In this document: in pieces, positions 3 through 62,772 of the stretch
How positions within the stretch are numbered: the first letter of the stretch is position 1
Layout: every line of letters begins with the position of its first letter
Source: Amoebidium appalachense
Lineage: Eukaryota; Protista; Ichthyosporea
Reading direction: 5' to 3'
Assembly: GCA_963693365.1 (NCBI GenBank)
Contig: CAVNZM010000017.1
Location: 3,091,527-3,155,526, forward strand
Length of the DNA stretch: 64,000 bases
Program-made: the position numbers and the translations under genes
Notes under the pieces: generated by a model
Database searches by the model: none
Seen by the model: the letters and a program-made list of their open reading frames with translations, nothing else
Told to the model about the DNA's origin: nothing

Positions 3-269
3 CTCGCAGACTTCGATCCTACGGCTCCCTACAACACCACACTTAACCGTGTTGATGCAGAGGCCGCTGCCCGGGCCTCTTGGCAACGCCGGGTGCTTGC
101 AAGAATGGCCAACGCCCATGCATGGGCTGTCAAGGCAGCCACACTTTACCCGGCACACGACAGCCGGGCCAAAACAGCAGCTGAGGTGCGTGCCTACTGG
201 GAGGCTCAGCACGTGCAGGTCTTCAGCAAGCCCTACGACCCCACCGCCGCACCAGCCAACTCCCAGTAA
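3..269 (+). CDS. 3' end of LINE ORF1 (5' part lies outside the window)
   Basis: Frame 3 is open from the window edge (LADFDPTAPYNTTLNRVDAEAAARASWQRR...PANSQ*) to TAA at 267-269. The ORF2 ATG follows 2 nt later (TAAgcATG), a typical bicistronic LINE layout. Confidence 0.7.
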   Translation, partial: LADFDPTAPYNTTLNRVDAEAAARASWQRRVLARMANAHAWAVKAATLYPAHDSRAKTAAEVRAYWEAQHVQVFSKPYDPTAAPANSQ

Positions 270-271
270 GC

Positions 272-3200
272 ATGCTCTCCTTTCTTTTCTGGAATGCTCG
301 TAGTCTAAATAAGAGTAAAGCACAGTTTCTTCTTTCGTTACCCCAACAGGAGTTCCCGTTTATTGTTGTCGCAGAAACGTGGTGGCGAGACCACGCCACA
401 CTCCGTCGGTCTGGACGGCTCGTCGGCGAGTCTACTCAGCCTGTGGGCCACAAGCCTCACTCCGGCATAGTGTTCATCGCCGCCTACCACTTTGTTAACC
501 ACTGTTCAGTTATAGCACGTACAATACACACACTCACCATCTCAGTTTGTGGCCATATATGCACTTTTGTTTATTTTCCACCTAGCCTTCCACTTCTAGC
601 ACTTAAACACGAGCTTAACACCATCGCCCCACATAACCCCACACTAGTGTTAGGAGACTTTAATAGCCCGCTAACTACCACCCCACACCCCCTACACGGC
701 CACCCACAGGCCCTACTTAAACCCAACCACCCACGCACGCCAACCTTTCACACTTTTGTTACAGCCTTACGCCTTACTCTTCCATCTGTAGTACAAGAAC
801 ACCGCACGGACTGGGGGGCAGCCTCTGGTCCTTGCACCTTACACATACACCACAACCTACACCCCCCACCGTCAGACCACCTACCTATAGTCTTTCGCAC
901 TACACTTAGCCGTTCTACGCCGTCACCACAACACACTTACAGACTTAACGTACGCGAACTTAAAAGCCAGCGCGGCCAAGCAGACACTCGCTTCTTTTTC
1001 GAGACGGTGCAACCGAGTCTATTATCGCTTGTGCGTGATGGACGCCAAACCCCACTACGCACCGACCAGACCTTCATCGATAGCGTCTGGTCTACAGTAC
1101 GAGAAACCTTGTGGGACATAGGTGAATATGCCTGTTTAGGTGCCCAAGTTTACCCACAAGCACGAACTACACACACTCGCGGCCCTCGAGCGGAGGCTGC
1201 CTTACGTAAGCCTCTACCGTATCACATGCTATTGGGTAATATTCGGAAGATTGATCGCGGCGATCATTCGATTCGAATAACGGCCGACCCGTCATCCGAC
1301 CCGGAATCTGCAACCGATTCCTTTTACGGCACCCTGTTTAAACGTAACCCGACATGTATGGCCACGGACCTGGGGCAGGCGCCCCCTCCTGTTTTTGTTC
1401 CACCCTCCGACACACCACCACCACCACACACGGCGTGGCCAGCGGAGCCGGCTGAGTTTGGGGCGGAATTGGGGGAACTTTTTACCCCAGATGCGGTATG
1501 GCAGTTAGTCTCCCGTTACCCGTCCCGCAAAGCGTGCGGGCCGGACGGCATCCCTATGGCACTACTTAAGGTACTCATCCCACCCCGACCCGAGAAAGAC
1601 GAAAAGCGTGGCCCGCCGCCACCACTTACATGTATTCTTAGCGAGTTGTTTAGCTGGTATTCTGATGTCGGTAAAGTGCCCTCGGAGTGGCTAGCCACCT
1701 TAGTGTTTCCCATCAAGAAAACGGTTGCACAGGGTCCCATCCACGAATTTCGCCCTATCACCCTTACGTCCGTTTTTCGCCGATTATTCGAAAGTGGCCT
1801 TTTACAGGCCTTTTCCCGTAACCCCACCCTTAAGCAGGCTTCCCAGCTGAGCCCTCTTCAGGCGGCGTTTCGGCATCGACACTCATGTTACGCACAAATC
1901 CTCACTCTACATAATGCAACTCAAAGTGATACCGAGCACCTCGTATTTATCGATTTTAAGAACGCGTACGACACGGTCGACCTCCCTCGCCTGTGGGCCA
2001 ACTTGAAGTTAGCCACTCGCGGTGTCCCATTCCAAATGGGTCGGCTACTGGAAGCTATGTTTACGTTTACACGCGGACGAGCGGTGGTTAATGGGCGGCT
2101 ATCCCCAGGGTTTACCCGCACGCGCGGGGTACTTCAAGGGTCCCTGCTAAGTCCTCTTCTTTTCAACCTGTATATTGATGATTTAGCCGACACTCTTTCT
2201 GCGGCACAAATTGACGGGGGGTTGCCATCCCAGGCTCCTCCCGCCCTCTTTTTTGCCGACGATATTGTGCTTATGTCATCCGATCCTCTCGAACTACGGC
2301 AATTATACATTCGTGTGGTTGAACATTGGTGCCAGCGCAACGATATGCAGATTAATGTCAAAAAGTGTGCCCTTTTATCAAAATCGATACCGGCATGGGA
2401 CGACGTTTGTATTTTCGGCAGTCCCCTCCCTCGCCCAATCGAATACAAGTATTTGGGGATTCCGGTGGACGAATGGGGCATATGTTTCAAACGCCGGCGG
2501 ATGATCGACCGTCGGGTGGAGAGTGCAGGCAGGTGTCTTCGGTTATTTCGGGATGTGTATCTTGCTTCTCTTTCTCATACTGTCCACCTATACAATCGTC
2601 TTAGTATATTTTGCACATATATTCGCCCTTTGTCGGAATACGGGTTGCCCTTACTAGCTATGGCACCCCCTGATACTGTTACTAATGTCCTCAAATCATT
2701 AGATGATTTCCATTACACAACTTGTTGTATGTTTCTCACTGGTCTTTCCACACCTATCCCTAGACGCCTTTTTGATTCTCTCTACGCACTCACACCACCA
2801 TCACAACGCGTACACGAATTAGCCCTTAAATTTCACGAGCACATCACCCGCCTGTCCGCTTGTGCCCCGGACCACCCGCTCTTCCGGCTACACGCATCCC
2901 CGCCGGATTCGCCCCTGTACCTCTTCCCTTCCCCATCGTCTCTGCCCATTGCCGAGCGCTATGTGGAATGGCTGGCGACCCCCCCGGAGGTACGGCTAGA
3001 TCATAGTGTGAATATGAATAGTTTCAAGTCTATGGCTGATAGATATCTTTTTACTCTACGTGTTGAGTCCCTTCCGGTGTTAGGACCGCACAAACACCAA
3101 CTACTAGTAGCCTATATGGCGGATACGGTTAGAGAGTCTCGTTCATACATAGATTCGTTTATTCGTAATGTGGTGTGGTGTAAAAACGCAAAGATGATTA

Positions 3201-3490
3201 TGGCTTGGCGGTGTAATCGGTTTCTGGTGTCTCCTGCTCGTATGTGTAATATGTGTGGGGGGCGGTTTACTCGCGGCTGCATATCTATCAATAAATGCAA
3301 CCTGTTAGCTAATGTATTAGAACCGGAGGTTATTGGCGGTTTTATTCTCTTTTCTTCATCTCTTCCTCAATATATCCGTTTTAAGATGACTATCCTAGAT
3401 CACCTTATTAATGCTGCACAGTATGATATTGTGATCCGGTGCCTTAACTTTCTGTCGGAGCTACCGATGCTAGCATCTGCTTACCCATAA
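272..3490 (+). CDS. Non-LTR retrotransposon ORF2: APE endonuclease + reverse transcriptase + C-terminal Cys domain, 1072 aa
   Basis: APE motifs WNARS, AETW, LGDFN, SDHLPI. RT motifs GPDGI, FRPITL, QAAFR, FIDFKNAYDTV, GVLQGSLLSPLLFNLYIDDL, FADD, YKYLG. C-terminal CNMC-x7-C-x5-C. No stops or introns. Confidence 0.97.
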   Translation: MLSFLFWNARSLNKSKAQFLLSLPQQEFPFIVVAETWWRDHATLRRSGRLVGESTQPVGHKPHSGIVFIAAYHFVNHCSVIARTIHTLTISVCGHICTFVYFPPSLPLLALKHELNTIAPHNPTLVLGDFNSPLTTTPHPLHGHPQALLKPNHPRTPTFHTFVTALRLTLPSVVQEHRTDWGAASGPCTLHIHHNLHPPPSDHLPIVFRTTLSRSTPSPQHTYRLNVRELKSQRGQADTRFFFETVQPSLLSLVRDGRQTPLRTDQTFIDSVWSTVRETLWDIGEYACLGAQVYPQARTTHTRGPRAEAALRKPLPYHMLLGNIRKIDRGDHSIRITADPSSDPESATDSFYGTLFKRNPTCMATDLGQAPPPVFVPPSDTPPPPHTAWPAEPAEFGAELGELFTPDAVWQLVSRYPSRKACGPDGIPMALLKVLIPPRPEKDEKRGPPPPLTCILSELFSWYSDVGKVPSEWLATLVFPIKKTVAQGPIHEFRPITLTSVFRRLFESGLLQAFSRNPTLKQASQLSPLQAAFRHRHSCYAQILTLHNATQSDTEHLVFIDFKNAYDTVDLPRLWANLKLATRGVPFQMGRLLEAMFTFTRGRAVVNGRLSPGFTRTRGVLQGSLLSPLLFNLYIDDLADTLSAAQIDGGLPSQAPPALFFADDIVLMSSDPLELRQLYIRVVEHWCQRNDMQINVKKCALLSKSIPAWDDVCIFGSPLPRPIEYKYLGIPVDEWGICFKRRRMIDRRVESAGRCLRLFRDVYLASLSHTVHLYNRLSIFCTYIRPLSEYGLPLLAMAPPDTVTNVLKSLDDFHYTTCCMFLTGLSTPIPRRLFDSLYALTPPSQRVHELALKFHEHITRLSACAPDHPLFRLHASPPDSPLYLFPSPSSLPIAERYVEWLATPPEVRLDHSVNMNSFKSMADRYLFTLRVESLPVLGPHKHQLLVAYMADTVRESRSYIDSFIRNVVWCKNAKMIMAWRCNRFLVSPARMCNMCGGRFTRGCISINKCNLLANVLEPEVIGGFILFSSSLPQYIRFKMTILDHLINAAQYDIVIRCLNFLSELPMLASAYP

Positions 3491-8640: not shown

Positions 8641-9561
8641 GAAAGAAAGTGCAAAGCATGCATAGTAGTGAAGGAGGTACCGCACCGAATGATGTTTGGT
8701 CCCTGCCTTCTTTGTTGCCAACACTTTGCAACAACGAGTCTTTCATAGTAAACTTTAGCTTTTGCTTCGGATGTTTTTTTGGCCCCCCCTCCCCCCCCCC
8801 CCTTCCGGCCCGGCCCCCCCCCCCCCCCCCTGCGGCGGATCTCAACCAAGGCATGGACCCATGATTCCGATATCGCAGACGTCCATTAAAGTTGGCACTT
8901 GGGCAAGGCCTTTAATACACTTCCCTCTCGCGTGCCCATGTGGAAGCGGGGCCCCTCGTTGCTCTGCACCCAGTAGACAGATTATACACAAAAACATATT
9001 CTAACCGAGATTGGGCCCACTAGATCGTTTATTCCAGAATTTCCAGCAACAGATGTGCCAATGGATGGGCCCAATTGTACCAGTATGATCAGATCTGACT
9101 TTGCCAGCCTCACGCGCCGGCCCGTGCAGGCTGAGGGGCACATGCGCACGCAGGTGTTCACTGACCGTGCCCTATCTATGCCAGGCTGCCAGGCAGTGCC
9201 AGCATGCTCCATCAATGGCACTTGCTGATAGATTGCAAAGTTTTTTACATTCTTCTATTTTAGGCATACGTACGCACTGTACCATCACATGCAGCACAGT
9301 AATACACAGTGTACTGTGTGATACGGCAATATATGTGGGGCCATTGATGTTTTTTTTTTTATATACTGTGTGATACGGCAATATATGTGGGACCATTGAT
9401 GTTTTATTTTTTTATCGTACTATTTAGGATCAGAGTAAGATAGGAAAGACCGCGTGCCCCGCATCAGTTTGGTAGCTACTGGAATGCAAGATCTAACCAG
9501 TTCGGTTTCACCAAATTAGATCCACTAATCATCGTTAGGCACTAAAACGCGCAAATCGACA

Positions 9562-10674
9562 AATGGCCAGGGGATTTCACAGCGGGTGCGCTCGCGCTTC
9601 CAAAAAAATGTCGCACTGTGGAGTGTGGACTGGCAGAAACACAGCAGTGCACACTTTTTATTGACCTCGATGAAAAAGAAATCTGCAGATAGTCCGTTTC
9701 TATCCTATAATTGCTTGGTTGAACGCTGGAGTATCTGAAAAGGTAACAGAACCAGCAGACAGGCAGAGGTACACCAAGTTTCACACTCACAGATCTTGAA
9801 ACCACATCTGGGGATCCGTTGGTCAGGGTTGGATTGCTAAGCCCATTGCACTTAAACGAACTAACGTTGTTGTTTGACGTTTTGGAAGAGCACTTGCTGC
9901 ATAACTTCCTTGGGGAAATTCTTCGCAAGGTAAACAATAGTAACTATCAGCACTTCAGGTAAAGCACCTTTTAAGATGTGCAAAACGACTTCCAACTTCA
10001 CAGGTCCCATCGCCCATCCGCGTGCCGCCACCCAATCGCACATGCAGTGGATGCCCAAACAGAAAAGACAAACGACTCAAGTGAAGTCACAGGATTCCTT
10101 GCTCGCGGCCGCAGCAGGCGCGACCTTCTTCTTCCAGTCAGAAGCGAGGGGGGCAATAGACGTCGACACTTCACTGTCCGCAGCCGATGCAAACCCAAGG
10201 ATGGTGAACCCACAACAGATGTTGTGCAAAGGGGATGGCCACCATTGCAAGACTGTCAGTGAGTCAAGCACGCTTCAAGTTGACCTGTGCTTGTTGATAA
10301 ACGACACGAATTCCTCCTCTGGAACATCTTCGGATTCGGGAAGCAGCAACAGTAAAACTTGCGTCGATGGTGACAGAGATGGGGAATCTCTGCACCATGT
10401 CAATAAACAAATCGAAGCTCAACAGGACGAGGGCCCAATTGTGAGCTTCAAGCCACGGCACCTGAACACATCCAGGCACAGGCGGCACGGTGACCTGCGG
10501 AGTACCTACGGCATAAGTGCACACAGTAGCAACGGGGTTGGGCGGCGCACACTTGCTGCGTGCATGGTGGATGACGTCACTCAGGTCACAACAGCCGCGG
10601 CATATGCGAGGGGGAGGCTTCTGCAGACGGCCGTGTGCGAGGTGGCTGAGGAGATGGAGTGCGAGGTTGCGTAG
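9562..10674 (+). pseudogene. Degenerate coding-like segment inside the duplication (second copy about 20452-21566)
   Basis: Protein-like reading (LVERLEYLKRQQNQ...LHLNELTLLFDVLEEHLLHNFLGEILRKVNN) is broken by stops, some differing between copies (TTA vs TGA in LHLNE), and copy B has a frameshift near 21277. Confidence 0.3.
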
Positions 10675-10784
10675 AGTGAGTCAACGGCCGTGGACAGTTC
10701 TCTCGGTTGCGGCAAAGACTGTGCAGAGTCTGGTTTCAAATAGGTGTTGCGGTTTATGAGCTTTCCTTTTTTTTTTTCTTTTTT

Positions 10785-10827
<43 letters not shown>

Positions 10828-11424
10828 TATGGGGGATACATATGTGTCCCCAATCAACCACTATTATCGACATGGGCGGCAGCAATGACGTGTCGCACGA
10901 AAATAGCTATAATAATGATTCAGCTCAACGAATATTCGAGTATAAATCATTCAGCAGCATAGCCTATGTACTATGATACAAGTATATAAACGGCGCACCT
11001 TAACCATGATGTGGTGATGATATCAAGGTTATGCCGCATTAAAATTTTGTACCATGTATTGCCACGGTGACTCGAGTTGATTGGTCAAAAGTCACGTGGT
11101 GCTTGGCAATGTGTATTAATATTGAAGTGCACGTGGATTTGATACTAAGTATACTGTATGTGACTTGTACAATCATTACATAACTGTGTAAAGCACTTGG
11201 CAATTGTAAATCTAGCACTAGTAGTCGATGATGCATGAAAACGTTGGCTGTCGTCTACTGAGCATGGCTTTTGTGCAAATGTGATATATATAGTGGACGA
11301 GGTTGGCAAGCTGCGCATGCAGCTAAGAAATAGTGAATGTATCAATCGAGTCAAAGGCTGCTGTACAGTATAGTGATACATCGCCGGATACGTATATATA
11401 TCATATATATATACTATTATATAT

Positions 11425-11633
11425 GGGGTTTACGCTGTTTACTCGAGGCAAAGAGAAAACAGTCTCAGGTATGGGGGGGGTTTTGCTCGGAATATCCCCT
11501 CAGCGGTATATCATGATCACGTACATAGATGTCGGGTGATGACTATATATCAGGGTTTACTTTCTCTACGAGACACCATAAAGACTAAGAGAAATCAATT
11601 AGTTGGGGTTCCCCGTTTTTTTTTTTTTTTTTT

Positions 11634-11689
<56 letters not shown>

Positions 11690-11719
11690 GGCTCCCCTGG
11701 GACACTCGGTATCAGCTGG

Positions 11720-11788
<69 letters not shown>

Positions 11789-12010
11789 CGCGCGCGTGCG
11801 CTAGAATTTTGTAGTGATGTGTTTCTCAAGCCAATCAATACATCTAATAAACAGGTCGTAGTTACGCGTGTTTAGTATAAAATCAAGGCCCGTTGTAATT
11901 TACAGGTAGGCTATCTTTCTGGGTGTCTGTTGTGAATGTGACGTGTGTGTGTTGCGGGATTATGTGGTCTATCAAACTACATAGACCACATAATACCGCA
12001 ACACACACAC
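11425..12010 (-). mobile_element. 5'-truncated LINE family-2 insertion in a (TA)n tract
   Basis: Reverse complement matches about 38178-38709 (end of ORF2 and 3' UTR). Absent at the corresponding site in copy B (about 22250-22285, TA-rich). Confidence 0.9.
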
Positions 12011-12698
12011 ACTATATATATTGCCTGATCTGTGATAAAAATATAAACTTATATAAGTGCAGTAAATCCATTTGACTATGATTGATTAGCCAGTTCGACG
12101 GCGTTAAATATATTATTAAGGTCCGCTTTGAATGTCACGGGTACTGAGTAGCCTCATAAAATAAGGTATCCGTGTAAGTAGGCAGTGACGTTGATATACT
12201 GTGATAAATGATTCAATATAGACCACAACTTAAGCAGAGTGTTACCTTCCGCAAACAAGTGACTGATAAACTGTCGGTCCTACGTAATTAATTTTATTCC
12301 TCTTTACCAATCGAGCGTACCAGGTCACGGGCTAGGTACTGGTTGGCAATGCGGGCTACTGTGATAACATGTGATGGTTAGTAAGATGATCTGCATTCTA
12401 AGCAAAGTTTGCATAATAGTACAGTATGTGTTAAATTGGGTCTATTGGTACATGTGTTTCACTTTCTAGGGCGGTCCCCACGGCACAATTATGAGGTTGT
12501 TTCCATTTCAATTGCTATCATGGCCATGGTTGGCATGCCGGGAAATACTGATTCCAGCTGGCTACTCGTAAATTCGCCCACTGATTTGTGTCATTCGGGT
12601 GCTTCGGCACACACACACGCACACTTGCGCAGGCATGCACATGCATTGGTCAAGACGCCCACCGTACAAACATGCACGTCTGTCTATATGTGAGCGGT

Positions 12699-12732
<34 letters not shown>

Positions 12733-13607
12733 GGCGCTCGCATGTCACGAGTGTGTGTGTGGTCTGTGTGTGTGTGCATGCATTACAGCACCGGGTCCCA
12801 GTGTGTGGGCACACACACACACACACTCTCTCTCTCTCTCTCAGAGTCCCCCCCCCCCCCCCCCCCCCCCCCTTCTATCTCTCTCTGTCTCTTTTTTTAT
12901 TGGATGTGGTGGCTGGGTGGCCTCGACGGTGGTGGTGGCGGTGCGGGGGGAGGGGAGGGGGGGGGGGGGGGGTTCACATTTCAAGTTATTCGTGTGTGTG
13001 GGTAGTGGGTGGCCGGGTGGTGCAGCGGCAGAGAAGGAAAAAAGCAGTGCGGGGGAAGAAGGGGGGGGGGGGGGGGGGGGGGGGGGAGGAGCGGGGGAGG
13101 AGGGCCGGGGCTCTGCAAGACACACTGGAATCACACCCGTAAACTCTTTATGCTTTTACTGTGCTTCGGGTATTATGCACGATTCATACCTTCTCGCCCC
13201 AAGCGATCAACGGGGGGAAACATTACGGAGTCCTGAAATAAACATCGATCCCACACACAACACTAAACGACGTTAAAATCAGGTGGGTAGGCACAGTTCA
13301 TTCCCATCCTCCCACTAAGCCTGCTTAGTCAGAAAAGTGGTATCCCCCTTCCCCTTCCCCAAACAACAACAACAAAAAAAAAAAAAAAGGGAAAAGAAAG
13401 GAAGAAAAGAAAGGAAGAAACAAAAACCTACCCCCCCTCCCCCCGCTCCCCCCCCCCTCCCCCCTCCCCCCTCCCCCCCACCCACCCACCCACCCGCCTC
13501 CCAACCCCACCAAAAACAATGCAAATAACAAACACGGAATCGGAAACAATATCTAAATACCCCCCCCCCCCCTCCCCCCACCACCCCCCGGCCCCCCCCC
13601 CCCCCCC

Positions 13608-13670
<63 letters not shown>

Positions 13671-13931
13671 CGGATCTCACAAATCAACCCCCTAGTGCAT
13701 GCCCCACCTGCTTGAACTTCCTTGCAGCAGGCGATTGATGTTTTTTTTTTTTTTTATCGTACTATTTAGGATCAGAGTAAGATAGGAAAGACCGCGTGCC
13801 CCGCATCAGTTTGGTAGCTACTGGAATGCAAGATCTAACCAGTTCGGTTTCACCAAATTAGATCCACTAATCATCGTTAGGCACTAAAACGCGCAAATCG
13901 ACAAATGGGGTTGCACCCTCGTTTCCCAAGC

Positions 13932-13977
<46 letters not shown>

Positions 13978-14054
13978 CCCCCCCCGCCCCCGCCCCCCGC
14001 CCCCGCCCAAAAATTTCGAGGTGGGAACGGGGGGGGGGGGGGGGGGGGGGGGGT

Positions 14055-14085
<31 letters not shown>

Positions 14086-14897
14086 GGGAGGGGGGGGGGG
14101 AATCCGAGTCTGCAGTGTGCTTGCCATTAATTTACGGTGTCATTATTAATAAAACAGCTGCAGCATGTGAAAGTGACCTGCAATCACTTCTACACATTAT
14201 TATTATGGTATTTTGACTACGTAATGATATCATAGGTATTAAAAAGGCGAATGTCGCATGCATGGATGTATACATAGTGTGTGCTTGACGTGTATGTGGT
14301 TGCGTGTGTGCATGTTCATGTGTGTGTGCCGTGTGTGTGCATTGAATGTGACAGCATACTCTACATACACCGTGACATTACAGTTAAACTGTAAGTAACA
14401 TTACAATCATAAACTACCACTCTGACATGCTGAACATTACTGGAAGTTAAATGTTACAACTAACACCTAACAAACTGATTCTTAAGTTACTGTATTGACT
14501 AAGTCTTGGCATCATGATGCCAAATCCCATACTAATCGAACCTACTAGACATGCCCTACGTTTGCCACCTGACCCCAAAGCAGCTGGCAGCCACAATAAC
14601 AATTAGAAAAATAAAAAACTACGTGGAGGGATTGGCTCACTTCCACCTATTATCCGTGACACTAAAACTGAGCAGGCGGATGCCAAAAGCGGTGACCAGA
14701 GCATACAACATGGCCTTGCACCTACAGCATTGCATGTAAGTATGACACAGATGGGGAGGGATTGCTAAAGTCAGTTGACAGACGCTACATTGTGCACTGG
14801 CTATCGTGCTCGGGTATGTGTGATAATAACTGGGGTGGAACGCTTGCGGATGGTGCGGGTGCTGGCTAGGGGGAATCACCCCAGACTGTTGGGTGCT

Positions 14898-15821
14898 TTA
14901 GAATTCATCCGCCGAATCGGTTGACGAACTGGTGGGATCATGCTCCTGAGGGGCAACACCTGTGTTGGTGCTTGCACGTGAAAGGCCGCTGGGCTTGGCC
15001 TTCTTTGACGGGGCAGTCTGTGAATTACTCTGTGACTTCAGCCCACGTTTCGTGTTTCGTGCTCTCTCGCTTGCTTTCTCCGTAACTGTCCTAGCAGCGG
15101 CTTCCTTAGCCCTCGCGATTTCCTCCCTCACCTCGGCGGCCACCTGACTACGCAAACGTCTTTCCTTCTCAATGTGTTCTATTTTTGACTTGATTTGTTT
15201 CAATGTTTTGGAAAGGATGGCATCCAGCCCCACACCCTCCTCGTTGCCCTCCAATGCTGCATGGTAATGTGCAAATATGTCCTCCTCTGTTGCCGGCAAC
15301 TTTTGTTCCGCAAGCGAAATAACAATACTTTCAATCAACGCGGTCTCCGCATCCGACCATCTACCCGAACGTACCTCCTCGCCCACAGACACATAATACT
15401 CCAAACCATTCTGATCTGTGGTTCGTGTTTGCGTGAATCGTGCGCGCCGCCTTTGCGTTGGAACCGTGGCAGTGGCCTTGCCCCTGGTGGCTGTTGTGTT
15501 GGCCGTATGGGTGGTGTTGGACCCATCACCACTTCTCAGGGAAAGGTTCCCCCCTTCGCCGGATAAATGCAGCTGCATGGTAGACGGGCGACCTGGACGG
15601 TTTGGCTCTGGCCGCTGTCCATGACTGCATGTGTATGTGCGTTTGTGTGTGCGTGTGAATGCGCGCGCACGTGTACACATGTGTGTTTGTGTGTGCGTGC
15701 GCACACGTGCTCTGTGGGTGCGTGCGTGCGTGGATTCGTGCACCTGTGCATCTATCCACACACGTGTATGCATGGACCATGATGCGCGGATGCATTGTGT
15801 GTGTGTGTGTGTGTGTGGTGT

Positions 15822-15853
<32 letters not shown>

Positions 15854-17518
15854 GGGGGGGCTGTGTGTGTGCGTGCACACGTGCATGCGTGTGTGTGTTT
15901 AAGTTTGTGTATGGTGTGCGGGTGTGCAGGTGGTGAGCAGTGGGGAAGGTGGGGGGGGAGGAGGAGGGGTTAGACATCATGAAACGACGGATACAGGAGG
16001 GGGAGGGGATTGGGAGAGGGGGCTTTTCTTTCCCCCTCCCGGGGGGGGGGGGGGGGGGAGGGGAGGGGGGAAAGAGGGGGGGGGGGGGGGGGGGGGGGGG
16101 AATAAAGAGAGGGACAAGCAGAAATACCTGGATTTGGCCAAGTTAAGGTTTCGATTATAAAGTACCAAGTGTGGGCAAATAGAGGATGCAAAAGAAGAAA
16201 AGTAGCAAATGCATATCATACGGCTCACCTGTTGCCACAATTCTCACACCTGCATGCCTGGGTGCATGCCCGCTTGTTCTTTGCGCATATGCAACGCTCA
16301 TGCCCATCGTATGCCTGCACTTTTCCCCCGCCGTTCTTAAAACCACAAAAAAAACGTGTTCTATCCTTACTGTTTCTATTACAGCTGCAGCCCTTGGCGG
16401 GCAACCCACCGAACGTGTCAGTTGTGTTAGCGTTAGACGCCAACTCCGTCGAGTTTTCCGTGTCAACTGAGTGTGATGTCTGTGTTTGGTTGTTGTCCGA
16501 GATTTTGTTCGCATGCGACAAGCGAGGTATTACCACTGAGTAATGATCTGCTGCACCGTTAAGTGATACGGGTATGGCAATGTTGGGTTCGATGACGGTG
16601 GGTGGAGTGACCGCAACTACACCGTGATTGGCAATCGTGCTAAAAATGGTTATTGGTATGCGGAGTGCGTTGGCTAAGCCCAGCACCATCGCGTCACCGG
16701 CTGCAGAAGCAAAATGGGCGCACCGAGGACAGCGGAAATCATCAGCTACGTATGCGAGGGTCACCCTTGAAAGGAATCCTTGGTATTCTGCTAGATTTCG
16801 CCGCCATTCGTTTACCATTAGTTCGCGTAGCCGTCCAATCGCCTCTATAGGCTCCATATTAGCTGTAAACCCCAATGTGTTGAGGTGTTCACGGGTAGCT
16901 ACATGACCGCTTTGTAGATACTGATTGATATAATGCCACACCGAATGAAACAAACAGTTGCCGTCAGCGGGTGTTTCCATAAGCTCCATTCTCCAGGCAC
17001 CCAGAATTTGAAGAAGGCGTTGTTGCTGGACCTCAGGTGGCCCGGATATGTCCCTGTGTTGCACATCACAAGGAAGAATAAGCAAAGACAAGAAGTGGGA
17101 GGGTGACGTAGGGCAGTGGTGGTGGGGTGGGTGACAGTGGGGTGGGATTGGGGGGGGGGGGGGGGGGGGGGGGAGGGGGAAGAGAGAGAAAGACAGATTA
17201 TGGGGAAGGCGGAAAGGCCGAGGAGCAGAACAAGGGAAACCTTGGCGTGTGTGTGTGTGTGCGTGTGTGGGTGGGTTGGGGTTGGGGGGGGGGGGTTGGG
17301 GGGGGGGGGGGGCATTAGATTATTAACAATTCTATAAGTGAATAAGAGTGTGTGCGCTCGTGGCTGCGAGGGGAGGGTGCATGCGTGCATGCATGGGTGC
17401 GTTCGTGTGTGCAGGTGTGTGAAAGGGGAGGGGTGTGTGTGTGGGGGGGGAGGGGGTTAGGCACTCTGAAGGGGGCCGGGCAGGTGTAAGGGAGTACTGA
17501 TGAAGGAGGGGCTATGAA

Positions 17519-17553
<35 letters not shown>

Positions 17554-17913
17554 AGATGCAGATGCTTTCAAATAGGTGGAAGAGAAGCAGGGAGCTTCCA
17601 AAAAGGTAGGATGGAAGATATAGGTATACTATTAGAGAATAATGAGAATTAGGGGAGGTAAGAGGTAATGGAGGACTTGAAAAGGAGGGACGAATGGGCA
17701 GAGGCCCTCCTGAGGGGGAGGGGGGGGGGGGAGGGGGGAACAGGACAGGCATAATAAGTGGGCCTGGGGAGGCAGGTTGTCTGACAAAAAACTGGTGTCA
17801 CTTGGGTTGGAAGGAGAGATGGATTGATACGTGCAAGGAAGTAAGGAGGTGGAGCAGTTGGGAGGAAGAATTGTGGGAAGGAGGAGAGGGGGAGGGGGAT
17901 GCACAAAAGGGGG

Positions 17914-17947
<34 letters not shown>

Positions 17948-18382
17948 GGGGAGGAAGGGGGATGGGGGAAAGGGGAGGAGGCCCTGCAGGGAAAGGGGGG
18001 GGAGAGGCGAGAGGGAGGGAGCGGGGGGGCGTTGGAGGGGAAGGGGGGGGGGGGGGGGGGGGGGGGTTCGGCAGGAAGCACCTGGCAAGCTGTATGTCTG
18101 CTGCCACGGCCTCGTCAAAGAACACTAGAGTGAAGAGCAGATGATCCGGGTCCTGTGCTGCTAAAGCAAACCCTTCGGAGCTGTGCACAGACCCAATCAG
18201 CTTGCGCATCGCACGCCGGGCGTTAAGCTTGCGGCCTGCTAGGCGCACACATGTTGACACGTTGAATGAACCGGGGCTCTCGTCACTTGACCCCTCATCG
18301 TCATCGTCAGAGCCATCACTGTCGAAAGACCCAACCTCCATACCACACTCAGGCAAGGAACGGTTGCCATTATTGCCATAAG
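14898..18382 (-). CDS. Transposon-borne spliced gene: acidic region + OTU-family cysteine protease + CXC (tesmin-like) + Myb/SANT-like domain
   Basis: Exons 18382-18082, 17053-16229 and 15624-14898 join in phase at GT-AG sites. OTU motifs PADGNCLFHSV and DHYSVV; CXC-like GCSC...CICAKNKRACTQACRCENCGN; Myb-like GRWSDAETALIE...KTLKQIKSKIEHI. Start codon not located. Confidence 0.8.
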
Positions 18383-18486
18383 CTGCAGAGTGAACACAAA
18401 GACAGGGTGAGAGAATAGCTGGTCAATGGTTGCCAGGTCTATAAAGAACCCACTCCCAACCGAATCCCCCATCCAACCCCCCCCCC

Positions 18487-18517
<31 letters not shown>

Positions 18518-18923
18518 AACATACATACACACACACATACACACACACACACCGCCCACACCCTCCCCCACCCCCCCTCTTGCTCTCGGCCCCCCCCCCC
18601 CTGCCTAATTCTCCACTTCCCCCTTCTCCCTCTCCGTCCCACCCTCCCGCCCTTCCTCTTTACCGACTGCCCTCCTCTCTTTGCCCCTCTCTTTCTGTCT
18701 TTTCCGCCATCCCTCCCTCTACCCTTTCTCCCCCTCCCTCCTTCCCTCCAACCCTCCCACCCACCCATCCTTCCCTCCCTTTCTCCCTACCCTGACCTCT
18801 CCCCCTTCCCCCCTCCCCTGTCTTTAACATACACACACAGGCACACACATACACGCCCCCCCCCCCCCCCCTCCTCCCCCTTCTCTGTACCCACCCACCC
18901 ACCCACCCACATTACACACACAA

Positions 18924-18972
<49 letters not shown>

Positions 18973-19535
18973 CAACACACACACACACTCACTACACACA
19001 CACAGGCACATACACACACAGACAAGCACACACCCACAGGCATACACCGTGACACACAGAAACTCTCTACCCACTATCCTGTACTGCCTCTTGACTAATT
19101 GTATGCTTAAAGGGGAAGGGAGGGAAGGGGGAAAAGCGGAGGAGTGGGCTTTAAGTGGGTACACTGCACAGAATGGTCACACAAAACATATGGAACACGT
19201 TGCCACACATACCCTATCGGGTGATAGCAACATATAAGAGGCAAGCCAAAGCAGAAAAGGCAGCATGCCATGCCAAACAGATCATGGGAGAGGCACAAAG
19301 GTCCATAAGATTAAGTGCAAGGGAAGGCCTGAGCGGTGAAGGCATTGGTATCCACAAGATGCAAAAGGACACACCTAACGTATTACATAAAAAACAACTT
19401 CTAAAACGGAGGAACCACCTGTAAGGCCCAGAACAGAGAGACAGGGGAGGGGAGAGAAAAAGTGGAAAAGAGGCAGGGGGTGGTGGGGAGAGAGGGGGGG
19501 GGAGGGGGGGGGGGGGGGGAAGGGGGGGGAATCAC

Positions 19536-20130
19536 CTGATGGACTCCCTCCGCTGTAGATGCATCTATCCGGCCGCCATGACGGGTTTGATGCCACACCC
19601 AATCCCTGAGGAAGGGCTGGGGAGGGCACGTGCCAGCTTCGACAGAGTCCTCATGATCCGCTATGCAATAATCAATGTACCGTGCAACGAATGGCTGTTC
19701 CAGCTTGGCATGATCTTTAGACCAAGATTTGTTTTCCTTAATGACTTTTTTGTTCACCCCATCTGGGTTGTTTGTTGAACCCGCTGCAGCCAAAAGACAA
19801 AAGGCGAGGATAACATGAACGAGAATCCTCAGCAAAGCCCAATGGCCTTGCCCACGTCCAATGCGGACGCGAGCATGTTTGTAACCCATGCTCACACAAA
19901 ATATGTACTACTGTCAGTTATGATCGAGCATTAAAGGGTGTTGTCTGTTTTTATTATTTTTATATGAGCCTACTGCAATATGATAAGGATGCTAGCGCTG
20001 TGTCACACCTGTCAACTGCCAGTCCAGGCTGTGACTGCCCGTTCAAGTACGCCACCACCTGCACGTGGTTGACGTGGTCTTGCTTAGCCCGCCTTTCGAG
20101 TTTATTCCTCGAATCAGACGCCACCAACGA
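19536..20130 (-). pseudogene. Probable transposase remnant (IS256/Mutator-type, inferred)
   Basis: VVAYLNGQSQ-[frameshift]-LDWQLT spliced (20009|19783) to AGST...RYIDYC...STAEGVHQ. These resemble DDE motifs of Mutator-like transposases as I recall them, with large internal and N-terminal deletions. Confidence 0.5.
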
Positions 20131-23038
20131 TGAGCCACAAAAACGGGTCAGAAAACGGGTCAGGAACGATTCGAGCTGATTCGACCCATAATAGTTCGAA
20201 CCGACCCATTTATGCCCCAAATAAATTTGGCACCAAATAATTTGGCACGAACCTGGTGACGTAAAATGTGGCACGAATTTATTTGGCACCAGCCCGCTAG
20301 CGGAGCACATCCAGGGGTATCCCCAAGCTCCTGTCGGTGCCTGGGCGACATCCTGCCCCATTTTCACCGTTTTGCAGGCTCGTGCCAAATAAATTTCGTG
20401 CCAAATATTACGTCACACCCTAGGAGCTTGGGAATTGAGGGTAGCACCACAAATGGCCAGGGGATTTCACAGCGGGTGCGCTCGCGCTTCCAAAAAAATG
20501 TCGCACTGTGGAGTGTGGACTGGCAGAAACACAGCAGTGCACACTTTTTATTGACCTCGATGAAAAAGAAATCTGCAGATAGTCCGTATCTATCTTATAA
20601 ATGCTTGGTTGAACGCTTGGAGTATCTGAAAAGGCAACAGAACCAGCAGACAGGCAGAGGTACACCAAGTTTCACACTTGCAGATCTTGAAACCACATCT
20701 GGGGATCCGTTGGTCAGGTTTGAATTGCTAAGCCCATTGCACTGAAACGAACTAACGTTGTTGTTTGACGTTTCGGGAGAGGACTTGCTGCATAACTTCC
20801 TTGGGGAAATTCTTCGCAAGGTAAACAATAGCAACTATCAACACTTAAGGTAAAGTACCTTTTAAGATGTGCAAAATGACTTCCAACGTCACAGGTCCCA
20901 TCGCCCATCCGTGTGCCGCCACCCAATCGCACATGCAGTGGATGCCCAAACAGAAAAGACAAACGACTCAAGTGAAGTCACAGGATTTATTGCTCGCGGC
21001 CGCAGCAGGCGCGACCTTCTTCTTCCAGTCAGAAGCGAGGGGGGCAATAGACGTCGACACTTCACTGTCCGCAGCCGATGCAAACCCAAGGATGGTGAAC
21101 CCACAACAGATGTTGTGCAAAGGGGATGGCCACCATTGCAAGACTGTCAGTGAGTCAAGCACGCTTCAAGTTGACCTGTGCTTGTTGATAAACGACACGA
21201 ATTCCTCCTCTGGAACATCTTCGGATTCGGGAAGCAGCAACAGTAAAACTTGCGTCGATGGTGACAGAGATGGGGGAATCTCTGCACCATGTCAATAAAC
21301 AAATCGAAGCTCAACAGGACGAGGGCCCAATTGTGAGCTTCAAGCCACGGCACCTGAACACATCCAGGCACAGGCGGCACGGTGACCTGCGGAGTACCTA
21401 CGGCATAAGTGCACACAGTAGCAACGGGGTTGGGCGGCGCACACTTGCTGCGTGCATGGTGGATGACGTCACTCAGGTCACAACAGCCGCGGCGTATGCG
21501 AGGGGGAGGCTTCTGCAGACGGCCGTGTGCGAGGTGGCTGAGGAGATGGAGTGCGAGGTTGCGTAGAGTGAGTCAACGGCCGTGGACAGTTCTTCCGGTT
21601 GCGGCAAAGACTGTGCAGAGTCTGGTTTCAATTAGGTGTTGCGGTTTATGAGCTTTCCTTTTTTTTTTTTTTTTTTGGGGGGGGGGGGGGCATATGGGGG
21701 ATACATATGTGTACCCAATCAACCACTATTATCGACATGGGCGGCAGCAATGACGTGTCGCATGAAAATAGCTATAATAATGATTCAGCTCAACATTCGA
21801 GTATAAATCATTCAGCAGCATAGCCTATGTACCGTACGATACAAGTATATAAACGGCGCACCTTAACCATGATGTGGTGATGATATCAAGGTTATGCCGC
21901 ATTAAAATTTTGTACCATGTATTGCCACGGTGACTCGAGTTGATTGGTCAAAAGTCACGTGGTGCTTGGCAATGTGTATTAATATTGAAGTGCACGTGGA
22001 TTTGATACTAAGTATACTGTATGTGACTTGTACAATCATTACATAACTGTGTAAAGCACTTGGCAATTGTAAATCTAGCACTAGTAGTCGATGATGCATG
22101 AAAGCGTTGGCTGTCGTCTACTGAGCATGGCTTTTGTGCAAATGTGATATATATAGTGGACGAGGTTGGCAAGCTGTGCATGCAGCTAAGAAATAGTGAA
22201 TGTATCAATCGAGTCAAAGGCTGCCGTACAGTATAGTTATGATACATCGATACCGTATATATATATACATATACACTAGTATGGCCTGATCTGTGATACT
22301 ATTAATATAGATTTATATAAGCGCATTAAAGCCATTTGACTATGATTGATTAGCCAGTTCGACGGCGTTAAATATATTACTAAGGTCCGCTTTGAATGTC
22401 ACGGGTACTGAGTAGCCTCATAAAATAAGGTATCCGTGTAAGTAGGCAGCGACGTTGATAAACTGTGATAAATGATTCAATATAGACCACAACTTAAGCA
22501 GAGTGTTACCTTCCGCAAACAAGTGACTGATAAACTGCCGGTCCTACGTAATTAATTTTATTCCTCTTTACCAATCGAGCGTACCAGGTCACGGGCTAGG
22601 TACTGGTTGCAGGCTACTCAGTGATAACATGTGATGGTTAGTAAGATCTGCATTCTAAGCAAAGTTTGCATAATAGTACAGTATGTGTTAAATTGGGTCT
22701 ATTGGTACATGTGTTTCACTTTCTAGGGCGGCCTTGACGGCATACAAATATGTGATTTAAAAAAAAAAAAATTATGAGGTTGTTTCCCTTTCAATTGCTA
22801 TCACGGCCATGGTTGGCATGCCGGGAAATACTGATTCCAGCTGGCTACTCGTAAATTCGCCCACTGATTTGATTCGGCCCACCCATCATGTCTGCATGTA
22901 CGTACACATCCACCAGACCCACATCGTAATTACATAACTATAACGCGGGTGCTTCGGCACACACACACGCACACTTGCGCAGGCATGCACATGGTCAAGA
23001 CACCCACCGTACAAACATGCACGTCTGTCTATGTGTGG

Positions 23039-23075
<37 letters not shown>

Positions 23076-23672
23076 CGCGCGCATGTCACGAGTGTGTGTG
23101 TGGTCCGTGTGTGTGTGTGCATGCATTACAAAGCCACCCAGTGTGTGGGCACTCTCTCTCTCTCTCAGAGTCTCCCCCCCCCCCCCCTCTATCTCTCACT
23201 CTCTCAATCTCTTTTTTAATTGGAGGTGGTGGCTGGGTGGCCTCGACGGTGATGGTGACGGTGCGGGGGGGAGGGGGGGGGGGGGGGGGGGGGGGGGGAG
23301 GGGGGGAGTTCACATTTCAAGTTATTCGTGTGTGTGGATAGTGGGTGGCCGGGTGGTGCAGCGGCAGAGAAGGAAAAAAGCAGTGCGGGGGAAGAAGGGG
23401 GGGGGGGGGGGGGGGGGGGGGGGAGGCGGGGGAGAAGGGGGCTCTGCAAGACACACTGGAAACACACCCGTGGCTCCTTATACTTTTACTGTGCTTCGGG
23501 TATTATGCACGATTCATACCTTCTCGCCCCAAGCGATCAACGGGGGGAAACATTACGGAGTCCTGAAATAAACATCGATCCCACACACAACACTAAACGA
23601 CGTTAAAATCAGGTGGGTAGGCACAGTTCATTCCCATCCTCTCACTAAGCCTGCTTTCTCAGAAAAGTGGTA

Positions 23673-23708
<36 letters not shown>

Positions 23709-23909
23709 AACAACAATAACAACAAAAAAAAAAAAAGGAAAAGAAAAAGAAAGGAAGAACAGAAAGGAAGAAACAAAAACCTACCCCCCCCCCCCCCCCT
23801 CCCCCCCACCCACCCGCCTCCCAACCCCACCAAAAACAATGCAAATAACAAACAGGGAATCGGAAACAATATCTATAACCCCCCCCCCCCCCCCCCTCCA
23901 TCACCCCCG

Positions 23910-35551
<11,642 letters not shown>

Positions 35552-36341: not shown

Positions 36342-37829
36342 GTGTTCGCATACACACACGCGTGCGCGCGCACACACACACACACATGCACACACACACA
36401 CGCGCGCGCGCACGCGCACGCGCGCACAAATTTGCACATAGACACGTGAGAGGGAAAAAAGAAGAGGGAGAGGGGGGGGGGGGGGGAGGGGGGGGGGGGG
36501 GAGAGAGAGAGAGCTACAGAGGGGGGGCGGGGACAGAGAGGAGGGAGGGGGGGGGGGGGGGGGGGAGGGGGGAGAGAGAGTGAGAGAGAGAGAGAGAGAG
36601 AGAAGAAAAAAGGGAGCGAGGGAGGATAGAGAGCCCAAAAAGCGAGCAGGAGATTATGCTTAAACAAAAAACAAATAACCACACAACCCAGGGCACCCAC
36701 GCTCACACACACAACAAACACAGAAACACAGAGAGAAAAGAACACGAACGAACCCTACAGCAGACACATAAGATGAATGGGGAAAGACATCGTGGCAGCA
36801 ATTGTGATGGAAAAAAGCAGATATGAACGGGAAGGGAAGGGGGGGAGAGAGGAAGCGGGTGGGGGGGGGAGAGGGGGGGGGGGGGAGGGGGAGGGGGGGG
36901 AGGGGAGGGGGCAAGAGTTTGCAGACATGCTACCACACCCTTTCTGACACGAACACACACTATGCAGACGCAGAGCTACAAGAAGCCTCACACCAGCGCG
37001 AGCGCACACATGCCGAGAATTCATGTATGTGCCTGCGCACCTTTTAACACTGCAGACCCACGACAGGCCTCTCCTCCCCAGGTGAAAGTAGTTGGTATCC
37101 GCCAGGGGACAAAACCCAACAGCTATTGTTTTGCTTGTGGACCCGCGTTTCCCCACTACCCAACCGCCTCAAAGCCGAGTCTCCATCTACTGTATGTACC
37201 TCTATGTAACTAGGTAACTAGTTGGAACTAAGTTGTATCAGGGGTATATATATAAAAAAAAGCGACCCTGAGTCTCGAGCTAACACGGCACTGAGCTGTA
37301 CGTGAGACTCGCAAAGTGCGAATCTCGTGTCACAGTCAGACAGTTACTCACGACTCATAAGGTTTTTGATTTGCGTAAAAAAAATTGACAAAGGCTAGCC
37401 ACAATTAACCTTTTATGGCTTTGTAATGAGAGCTCGTGATTGGACTCGTGATTGGAGGAACCATGCATGATGCGGCCAGCCACCACCAATGCACAGGGTT
37501 CGAATTCAAATTGCCAAATATGCGTCACATGATGACCCCTCGTACCGGGTCGCACAAGGATGGGGGGCGTGTGAAGTTGGAATAGCTGCTAGACACGGCC
37601 ATCTAGAAACACCTAGTATCCCATCTCGCGCTGAAATTCAATAAGCACATAAGCCGCTTAAACAAGTATTTGCCCTCCCACCCTCTCTTCTCTATCCTAC
37701 CTGTCCCCTCCTCACCTCTCCCCTCTTTCCTTCCCTCTCTCTCTCCTTCTCCCCCGGGCACAAATACAAATAAACCCCGCAAAAGTGTGCGTGTGACTTT
37801 GGACTGCCACTTACTTATTAAACATGTAC

Positions 37830-38409
37830 ACAATCACAAGATAATCATGCAATATAACAAATGGAAAAAGATACCACACGACACTAGACCCGATGAAAGC
37901 AGACACCTTGAAAAACTAAGCCTTATGTCTCGTTTTATATATAATGACCGCCTCAACCATATTGCCAAATATGGCACTCGCAAATGTATAACACCTAAAT
38001 ACATATTACCTTCCTGTAGAACTGGTCTTTCTCTAGCTGATGGTATTATTGATCAATTACCACGCTTTTACTGTACACGTGCTATACAGTGGAGATCTAA
38101 TAAGTATAAGGTGGCATCGTTTGCATGCCCAAACAACACACACACACCCCAGTTTAAACGGTCATGTATCGCCAAATGTAGTTTGATAGACCACATAATA
38201 CCGCAACACACACACGTCACATTCACAACAGACACCCAGAAAGATAGCCTACCTGTAAATTACAACATCCTTGTTTTTATACTAAACACGCGTAACTACG
38301 ACCTGTTTATTAGATGTATTGATTGGCTTGAGAAACACATCACTACAAAATTCTAGCGCGCGCACACACACACACACACACACACGCACACACACACGCA
38401 CACGCACAC

Positions 38410-38460
<51 letters not shown>

Positions 38461-38709
38461 CCAGCTGATACCGAGTGTCCCAGGGGAGCCCAAAAAAGAA
38501 AAAAAAAAAAAAAAAGAAACGGGGAACCCCAACTATTTGATTTTTCTTAGTCTTTATGGTGTCTCGTAGAGAAAGTAAACCCTGATATATAGTCATCACC
38601 CGACATCTATGTACGTGATCATGATATACCGCTGAGGGGATATTCCGAGCAAAAACCCCCCACACCTGAGACTGGTCTCTCTTTGCCTGGAGTAAACAGC
38701 GTAAACCCC
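37830..38709 (+). mobile_element. 5'-truncated LINE family 2 (ORF2 C-terminus and 3' UTR)
   Basis: WRSNKY...C...FKRSCIAKCSLI...ILVFILNTRNYDLFIRCIDWL aligns by eye with the C-terminus of ORF 272-3490 (WRCNRF...FTRGC...KCNLL...ILDHLINAAQYDIVIRCLNFL). Tail shared with 11425-11980. Confidence 0.85.
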
Positions 38710-47693: not shown

Positions 47694-51872
<4,179 letters not shown>

Positions 51873-59029: not shown

Positions 59030-59108
<79 letters not shown>

Positions 59109-59385
59109 CATTCGCCCTCCTCCCCTTCCCCGCCTCAGCCCCCCCCCCCCTCTCTCCCCCCCCCCCCCCCCAACACACATACACACACAACCGTACACAC
59201 ATACGTACACACACACACACAGGTTTGTGGATGTAGGTGACCAGGTGCAAGAGTTTGACCGGATAGCCGAGGTGCAGAGTGACAAGGCCACAGTGGAGAT
59301 CACCAGTCGCTACACCGGCACCATCAAGAAGAGATACTATGGTGTCGGGGATATGGCAAAGGTCCACTTTGTAAGTTTTCATCGG

Positions 59386-59420
<35 letters not shown>

Positions 59421-59695
59421 CCCCCCCTCCTCCGCCTCCCCCTCCTCCCCATCCCCGCCCCCCATGCCCCCCCTTCGCCCCCCAAAAATGACAAAGGTTT
59501 ACTTTGGAGTTTCCATTGACCATCCCCCCCCCCCCCCCCTCCCCCCGGCGCGCCTTTTGCATACCTCTCCCCCCTTCCCCTCCCCTCCCCCGCCACGTCC
59601 CCGAGTTAGGATACTTTGCGCCCCCCCTCCCCCCCCATGTCTCACATTCTCGACATGGATGGTTTTCTTTCACTAATTCACCCGCCTTGCTCCTT

Positions 59696-59727
<32 letters not shown>

Positions 59728-60071
59728 CCCCATCCTTTGTCTTTAGTCCTGTTCCCAAAGGCACACACAGCTTCAGGCCTTTTCCCGAACCAGTTCCCTT
59801 CCCCCTTCCCCCCGCCCCCGCCCCCCTCCCCCCGTTGCCTTGGTAAAACTTCAAAGCCACCAAGCACACACAGTTACTGTTGAGTCTCTCACTTTCTCTG
59901 CACAACACGTCTGTCTGATCCCATCCCATCCACCCTTATCCCTCCAACCTTTTCAATACCACCTATGCATTTCAGCCTCTTCAACCCGAAACAATAATTT
60001 CTTCCTGTGTAGGAACATTCAGAAATTAAAACTCCTAACCCCTCGACTCCCCATATACCTGGACTAACAAA

Positions 60072-60119
<48 letters not shown>

Positions 60120-60623: not shown

Positions 60624-60657
<34 letters not shown>

Positions 60658-61030: not shown

Positions 61031-61072
<42 letters not shown>

Positions 61073-62053: not shown

Positions 62054-62091
<38 letters not shown>

Positions 62092-62208
62092 CCCCCCCCC
62101 CTTCAAACCAGCCAACCAACCCACCCACCCACGCCTTCTTTCCCCTCGCCCATTTGAAGTCCACATCCCATTCTGGGCACCCGCTTCCTCATTCACTTCC
62201 CACTTCAG

Positions 62209-62252
<44 letters not shown>

Positions 62253-62644: not shown

Positions 62645-62676
<32 letters not shown>

Positions 62677-62735: not shown

Positions 62736-62772
<37 letters not shown>

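Follow-up and report, generated by a model that had tools for sequence, protein, structure and literature searches.

A transposon with exact ends in Amoebidium appalachense, probably a deletion derivative of a Mutator/IS256-like element with an OTU-CXC-Myb-like transposase tail

How does a transposon with sharply defined ends come to carry a gene for a deubiquitinase-like protein and no recognisable transposase core? The question is raised by a 6.5-kb terminal-inverted-repeat (TIR) element at positions 13901-20456 of a 64,000-nucleotide stretch, hereafter the window, of the ichthyosporean Amoebidium appalachense, a single-celled relative of animals (contig CAVNZM010000017.1, positions 3,091,527 to 3,155,526, assembly GCA_963693365.1). 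A first inspection of the letters, here called the sequence-only reading, had described the element and a spliced gene with OTU, CXC and Myb/SANT-like domains. In our view it is most probably a cut-and-paste element of a Mutator/IS256-like (DUF6729) family that is transcribed, likely present in many copies and likely non-autonomous, and whose open reading frame (ORF) is the C-terminal half of a transposase that likely lost its middle, the DDE part, by deletion.

The boundaries of the element are exact and are observed directly. An 8-bp target-site duplication (TSD), ACAAATGG, stands on the left at 13901-13908 and on the right at 20449-20456 (both + strand), and the same letters occur once at 9559-9566 (+) as the empty target site in copy A (9395-13588) of a duplicated region. 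With the insert left out of copy B, the alignment of the two copies has 1955 matching positions, 35 mismatches and 47 columns with gaps; the empty-site junction is also visible as a loose contig end in the public run X3. The 26-bp TIRs (left, 13909-13934, + strand, followed by poly-C; right, 20423-20448, - strand) both start with GGT and agree at 21 of 26 positions, a match reached by 14 of 200,000 random pairs from the same repetitive window. The 8-bp TSD, the imperfect TIRs and the uninterrupted target in copy A had all been noticed from the letters, and all are borne out; the TSD length of the lineage is read from this single insertion in the window. Direct and inverted repeats of the TTTGGCAC type, with no strand assigned, occupy 20202-20416 near the right end and would likely be transposase-binding sites. 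Part of the TIR recurs further in, as an inverted copy at 20319-20332. One contig of runs X3 and X9 shares the subterminal part 20278-20346 with the element and then diverges, possibly into a related element that has these binding repeats in common with it. The observed/expected ratio of CpG across the parts of the element is 0.55-1.0, with nothing notable.

Between these ends, the minus strand carries the gene. The exon at 18082-18382 encodes an acidic linker and a helix and holds, at 18341, the first in-frame AUG of a 603-amino-acid OTU-CXC-Myb ORF. The next (16229-17053) encodes the OTU domain, with its active-site codons for Cys at 16954-16956 and for His at 16543-16545 and Ser instead of Asp as the third residue, and the MSL2/tesmin-type CXC cluster (about 16389-16237). 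The last coding exon (14898-15624) adds a basic linker, a three-helix Myb/trihelix-like module (about 15377-15150) and a coiled tail, and closes with the stop codon at 14898-14900; the transcript is mapped to this coding end only. The introns are GT-AG and the exons share one frame with a single terminal stop. Splicing is seen in a transcriptome record of EukProt, P0151 (Amoebidium parasiticum, 614 amino acids), which agrees with the spliced product in 602 of 603 residues, spans both junctions and continues 11 residues beyond the stop of the window. Frame and record together confirm the three in-phase exons of the sequence-only reading; junctions 18082|17053 and 16229|15624 rest on P0151, the read contigs having covered 19505-20900 only.

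A fourth, upstream exon had been overlooked. It lies at 19536-20015 on the same strand, its 5' end being approximate, and is spliced to 18382: in run X9, the loose contig end at 19536 is the start of the 18382 exon. The RNA status of this run is a guess; the run shows a splice junction and has no cover at 20022-20256, where the DNA runs are deep. The 5' exon contains an ORF that opens at AUG 19889 in a strong context, includes a hydrophobic, signal-peptide-like segment, runs for 118 codons and then passes out of frame into the next exon. It totals 165 amino acids and stops at 18239, thus overlapping the start of the OTU ORF at 18341. Where RNA cover ends, at 20015, one contig of X9 runs out into 26 loose, purine-rich letters, which may be a 5' leader, a template switch or an artefact. 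The window carries three extra bases at 19906 relative to the contigs of all four spanning runs; the frames discussed here are unaffected.

What protein does the three-exon ORF encode? The OTU domain keeps the DGNC and HY motifs, and its Pfam match (E 3.9e-4, 21.4 bits) falls slightly below the cut-off of 23.3. Structure prediction, which had been proposed for the spliced protein, recovers an OTU fold: a confident AlphaFold model of the domain, built from 75 sequences, matches OTUD3 (E 5.1e-5) and yeast Otu2 (Z 16.2, root-mean-square deviation (rmsd) 2.0, 149 aligned). Motifs, near-threshold match and fold agree with the OTU protease with catalytic Cys and His that had been recognised from the letters, and isopeptidase activity on ubiquitin is predicted from fold and motifs only. 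The tesmin-like CXC cluster is likewise upheld. Its nine Cys stand at family-conserved columns, and we assign it to the MSL2/tesmin type because the family profile matches the CXC structure of MSL2 (2lua, E 3.4e-4). The label Myb/SANT-like fares less well: the C-terminal module has three helices in the model and weak fold matches to Myb, SANT and homeodomain proteins (Z 5.0-5.7), but the protein has no Pfam match to Myb/SANT, so that the name is plausible but weak.

The decisive evidence on the origin of this protein comes from its relatives. With the OTU-CXC exon as query, full HMMER searching retrieved 310 relatives at E<=0.001, superseding word-index searches in which longer relatives of this exon had not turned up; for the 5' exon, too, the word-index searches yielded no relative of greater length. 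The longest relatives (940-1030 amino acids) have a conserved N-terminal half followed by OTU, CXC and a helical tail. Across 44 aligned members the N-terminal half shows a transposase core, with D224 in all 38 rows that have a residue there and D297, each end of D319-x-x-H322, and E425 in 43 of 44; the DxxH motif is a hallmark of Mutator. A Pfam survey of these members at E<=0.05 matched 15 families, among them OTU (25 members), MSL2-CXC (15), TCR (7), DUF6729 (4), Transposase_mut (2), DDE_Tnp_ISL3 (2) and Myb_DNA-bind_4 (1). The Atlas places the N-terminal half beside DUF6729 clusters (top three 0.93-0.96, with DUF6729 on 28-96% of their members). The model of one relative, P0049 (mean pLDDT 82.9), has as its best match the IS256-family transposase ISCth4 (6xg8; Foldseek E 1.4e-5); by VIA-align the two superpose with Z 16.4, rmsd 3.4 and 266 aligned residues, and the next transposase or integrase rows reach Z<=9.7. 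At the other end, the last exon of the window aligns with the transposase family's C-terminus (hhalign probability 96.5, E 8.7e-10). The relatives also share N-terminal Cys residues (C33 in 35 of 35 rows, C36 in 26 of 31), for which no named zinc-finger family was matched.

From these alignments and models, the OTU-CXC-Myb protein is to be read as the C-terminal half of a Mutator/IS256-like DDE transposase with a DUF6729 N-terminus. The sequence-only reading had left the superfamily unassigned, which no longer holds, and the 8-bp TSD and short TIRs fall within the range of Mutator-like elements (MULEs). Its mention of similar proteins in marine invertebrates proved right: named members come from the hemichordate Ptychodera flava, the hydrozoan Clytia hemisphaerica and the coral Porites harrisoni. 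In a tree of the OTU domain (39 of 42 chosen rows, the other three being without the motif), the Amoebidium protein sits on a long, unresolved branch, and these 39 rows give no sign of recent horizontal transfer.

If the ORF is a transposase tail, where is the rest? A search by tblastn found no DDE remnant in the window, and a profile of 31 N-terminal halves run against 1507 window peptides gave a best E of 2.4. This copy encodes no detectable DDE core, and for this reason we class the element as a non-autonomous derivative. The YIDYC...DWVWH stretch of the 5' exon was considered as a decayed DDE core and rejected, with no support in the DDE-profile and family comparisons. Where the coding region for DUF6729 and DDE would be expected, there is a GT-AG intron of 1153 bp (18383-19535, - strand), the putative site of the deletion. 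One X9 contig parts from the window sequence at 19530 and continues the frame of the 5'-exon ORF as VPAVFIWDPQ, which contains the WDP motif that opens the DUF6729 region of the family. Scored against the WDP columns, held by 28 of 44 rows, this peptide reaches 31.8 (family members, 23.2-39.5); the best of 96,847 window 10-mers reaches 24.6. The DNA of this contig end is not in the window, where its best match has 11 mismatches of 30. On the strength of these 30 letters, the contig suggests that the organism also has a longer form that encodes the transposase.

The element might instead be a naturally separate helper of a two-component system, or the 1153-bp intron might hide DDE exons too diverged or too small to detect. 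The intron opens with GT and then poly-C like the next intron, so its donor may be native, and short exons escape profile searches. However, the about 450 codons of DUF6729 and DDE exceed what 1153 largely repetitive bases can hold, the letters that code for WDP do not occur in the window, and neither tblastn nor hidden Markov models find a remnant; we consider this explanation very improbable. Within the deletion reading, a start of the deletion six bases after the present donor seems to us more likely than one inside a native intron, since the latter would require a six-base coincidence.

The comparison of contigs from four public runs with window positions 19505-20900 bears on how common the element is. 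Single X3 contigs inside the right end have depths of 1218-1694 against 35-53 in the flank, about 30-45-fold as a ratio of contig depths. Run X2 shows a depth step likewise at 20448, and contigs from X1, X3 and X9 end precisely there, as expected where one element end meets many flanks. These observations support the other copies that had been anticipated, and tens of copies in the genome are likely if contig depth is taken as a guide. The deleted form would seem to be the prevalent one, judging by the X3 contig that takes in the intron side (19505-19848), which has a depth of 1218. A possible other flank in X2 at 20455 is a hint only.

Several points weigh against the deletion of a full-length parent as told so far. 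Contig depth is not copy number. Only 30 letters of one contig, from one run of guessed RNA status, tie the element to a parent in its own genome, and no WDP-type loose end occurs among those listed for the DNA runs. The 5' exon and the linker exon (18082-18382) have no profile match to the family. Among 80 metagenome loci, the 42 chosen for long matches and flanks were searched for TIRs plus TSD with a procedure that recovered the window element as a control, and none of the 42 gave such ends. Inverted repeats surround the transposase at 5 of 40 loci, and at three of these they are long minisatellite arms unlike the 26-bp TIRs: L030, L031 (1794-3746 / 12414-14537) and L058 are full-length relatives between such arms, in a Foldback-like arrangement. 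Of the other two, the inverted pair of L020 measures 113 bp and comes with no TSD; that of L067 measures 86 bp and sits at the two ends of the contig.

The same searches, with no intact relative seen to have ends like these (42 loci for TIR plus TSD, 40 for inverted repeats), speak for a Pack-MULE-like origin, in which an unrelated TIR element captured an OTU-CXC-Myb fragment. The captor could be a hAT, a Zisupton or another element with 8-bp TSDs. Elements of the hAT superfamily also make TSDs of 8 bp. So do Zisupton and Dileera (PMC12730594). Nevertheless, one transposase family is reached both from the 5' exon, by way of the X9 contig, and from the 3' exons, the parts being correctly ordered and on one strand between the TIRs, and capture is to us the least probable of the explanations weighed here.

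Is the C-terminal half a working protein in its own right? In a revised form of the sequence-only idea, the transposase has been partitioned: its C-terminal half would now be a separately translated accessory protein, comparable to TnpA or VANC, that binds the DNA of the element with its CXC and Myb-like modules and removes ubiquitin marks, leading to escape from silencing and to amplification. The 603-codon ORF is intact over three exons, spliced and present in the transcriptome; the nine Cys of the CXC cluster are retained, as are Cys and His of the active site, and the OTU model is confident and OTU-like. Amoebidium appalachense methylates its transposons (PMC11244446), and TnpA of Spm was derived from transposases by splicing and partitioning (bioRxiv 10.64898/2026.08.24.746577). 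Set against this are 11 AUGs upstream of the OTU ORF, none in frame with it, together with the 165-amino-acid ORF from the strong-context AUG 19889 that overlaps its start. The OTU-CXC-Myb ORF is likely translated poorly.

The OTU domain itself also argues against partitioning. Of 27 columns conserved in the family it deviates at 7, a number that only 3 of 72 rows, this one included, reach or pass, and G254A, G256D and D259S flank the catalytic His. The last of these changes the third catalytic residue, an Asp or Asn two after the His, to Ser259; the family has Asp in 64 of 72 rows and Ser in 4. In the TYMV enzyme PRO, Ser at this position accompanies poor deubiquitinase activity (PMC3744425). 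These deviations may reflect mere distance from an animal-dominated consensus, since the Amoebidium protein sits on a long branch. A 221-amino-acid transcript record, P0001, joins about 16702 to about 14927 and is devoid of the catalytic His, CXC and Myb parts; its junction is not GT-AG, and it is either a further deletion derivative or an assembly artefact. The DNA-targeted deubiquitinase with an anti-silencing role that the sequence-only reading put forward stays a hypothesis, weakened by the 11 upstream AUGs and the three changes beside the His, and we judge partitioning to be unlikely, though less so than capture or a hidden core.

The reading that we prefer, a deletion derivative, can be put as a sequence of steps. 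The parent gene would have had the order leader, DUF6729/zinc finger, DDE, linker, OTU, CXC and Myb-like module. An internal deletion would have taken out DUF6729 and DDE, and the 5' exon would now be joined, out of frame, to the linker exon. A full-length copy elsewhere would move the element in trans by way of its intact TIRs and subterminal repeats, giving 8-bp TSDs. Ac mobilises Ds in trans in this manner. The open OTU frame would need no function of its own, as the default for a young derivative is that the frame is still open. For the parent, the most likely role of the OTU domain would be in cis, with the transposase as its target, or else at DNA ends, on ubiquitinated chromatin and repair proteins; DNA binding by the CXC and Myb-like modules would hold it there, as the known functions of OTU and CXC domains suggest.

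The 5' exon may reveal more about the parent. Residues before the WDP motif number at least 45 in 16 of the 28 protein records that contain it; among 24 ORFs from loci, 15 have a Met at least 45 residues before WDP, seven open closer and two are without a Met. A hydrophobic 12-mer falls within the first 57 residues in 20 of 23 leaders, compared with 11% of control stretches from the same proteins, and small residues occupy positions -3/-1 behind the hydrophobic segment in 20 of 23 leaders and in the 5'-exon ORF of the window. These leader criteria, which also ask for a basic or neutral n-region, are ad hoc heuristics, applied after removal of near-duplicates, and records with short leaders are excluded by design. 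A profile of the 23 family leaders did not retrieve the 5'-exon ORF among 987 peptides at E<=10, as the leaders are too diverged. The 5'-exon ORF is likely the N-terminal leader of the parent transposase, and the intact transposases of the family appear to begin with what is predicted to be a signal peptide of the secretion type, an oddity in a nuclear enzyme.

Taken further, a widespread Mutator-type lineage reaching from an ichthyosporean to marine invertebrates would be made with a working secretory signal or membrane anchor and be sent to, or tethered at, the endoplasmic reticulum or nuclear envelope, its own OTU domain freeing or rescuing the enzyme. We offer this as a speculation that is more probably wrong than right. 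If it were true, the OTU would act by processing or by removal of ubiquitin during retro-translocation, transposition would have a built-in trafficking switch and possibly a route between cells, and the deleted copy described here would mainly express the leader alone.

For the field, DUF6729 gains a concrete identity as the N-terminal part of what these comparisons place as a Mutator/IS256-like transposase. The copy in the window is most likely an ordinary defective derivative. With it, one member of the family now has exact ends and a TSD. Its host, a unicellular relative of animals, can be cultured and methylates its transposons (PMC11244446).

The surroundings of the element hold further features. 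The region that contains it is a tandem duplication of about 4 kb (9395-13588 and 13734-23908), with a 246-codon open frame at 9934-10674 that gave no match in a Pfam scan and whose counterpart is covered by X9. An insertion present only in copy A, at about 11421-12018, is 84.5% like 38176-38709 (inverted) and 70% like 49601-49764, has TA-rich junctions and is probably a second small mobile element. An intact 1100-codon ORF at 185-3490 (+) belongs to a retrotransposon without long terminal repeats (RVT_1 E 3.7e-26, endonuclease domain E 2.4e-4), and a 249-codon frame at 37607-38356 (-) resembles by eye the C-terminal end of the ORF of a long interspersed element such as this one. Exons at about 57391-63459 (+), with lipoyl and E3-binding motifs seen by eye, belong to what we take to be the E2 component of branched-chain 2-oxoacid dehydrogenase; an exon at 34103-34561 (-) looks by eye like an RNA-recognition motif.

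How does the element compare with known systems? TnpA of Spm and VANC of VANDAL elements are likewise encoded by transposon ORFs with DNA-binding modules and no catalytic core (for TnpA, bioRxiv 10.64898/2026.08.24.746577). They differ in being demonstrated regulators from autonomous elements, whereas the present ORF is known from sequence and transcript, in a likely defective copy. Rehavkus shares a MULE-related DDE transposase, TIRs from 26 bp and repeats near an end, but is described with a 9-bp TSD, a PHD finger and arthropod or annelid hosts (PMC6446971), in contrast to the 8-bp TSD, the OTU-CXC-Myb arrangement and the ichthyosporean host found here. With a TSD of 8 and not 9 bp and no PHD among the 15 families matched by the 44 members, Rehavkus was rejected. 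So was Zisupton/KDZ, which shares the 8-bp TSD (PMC12730594), as the 44 members gave Mutator-clan matches and none to KDZ. No hAT Pfam match was found in the 44 members, and Hermes/hAT is not among the listed fold matches, ISCth4 being first in both searches.

An OTU domain on a transposase is not in itself new, as such fusions are already in print (PMC2836005, PMC1702500). Ginger1 and animal Helitrons have OTU domains fused to the transposase and spliced genes, with a proposed role of the OTU in ubiquitin control of DNA repair; unlike here, their enzymes are Gypsy-integrase-like or Rep-helicase and not Mutator-like (Bao et al. 2010, PMC2836005). As an identity for the present family Ginger1 was rejected, integrase rows reaching Z<=9.7 against 16.4 for ISCth4 and no integrase Pfam match occurring in the 44 members. 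A MULE of Medicago comes nearer, having an OTU-superfamily protease at the C-terminus of its transposase, suggested to process a transposon polyprotein (Babu et al. 2006, PMC1702500). It differs in belonging to the plant WRKY-GCM1/SWIM lineage, and a CXC, a Myb-like tail and a leader are not described in the accessible part of that article (PMC1702500). In the searched literature, from which Repbase, Dfam, subscription papers and supplements were excluded, no DDE-OTU-CXC-Myb transposase and no transposase with a signal peptide were found, and DUF6729 is named in no paper.

The closest framework is that of MULE/MuDR and IS256. MULEs have TSDs of 8-11 bp, and some groups have TIRs of 20-38 bp; the 8-bp TSD of the present element agrees with this, and its 26-bp TIRs are short but within the range given in Table 1 of that survey (PMC6446971). 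Like MULE/MuDR and IS256 enzymes, the parent transposase would have a DDE core, a DxxH motif and an ISCth4-like fold. In the available portions of two MULE papers, the words 'protease', 'peptidase' and 'Ulp1' are not used in one (PMC6446971), nor 'OTU' and 'signal peptide' in the other (PMC13359780). Unlike MULE/MuDR, the present copy is without a DDE core, and the parent would add DUF6729, OTU, an MSL2-type CXC, a Myb-like tail and a signal-peptide-like leader. The family supplies a further lineage for the repeated fusion of OTU domains with transposases, the function of which is still only proposed (PMC2836005, PMC1702500), and for specialists the surprising part should be the conserved signal-peptide-like leader on what is a nuclear enzyme.

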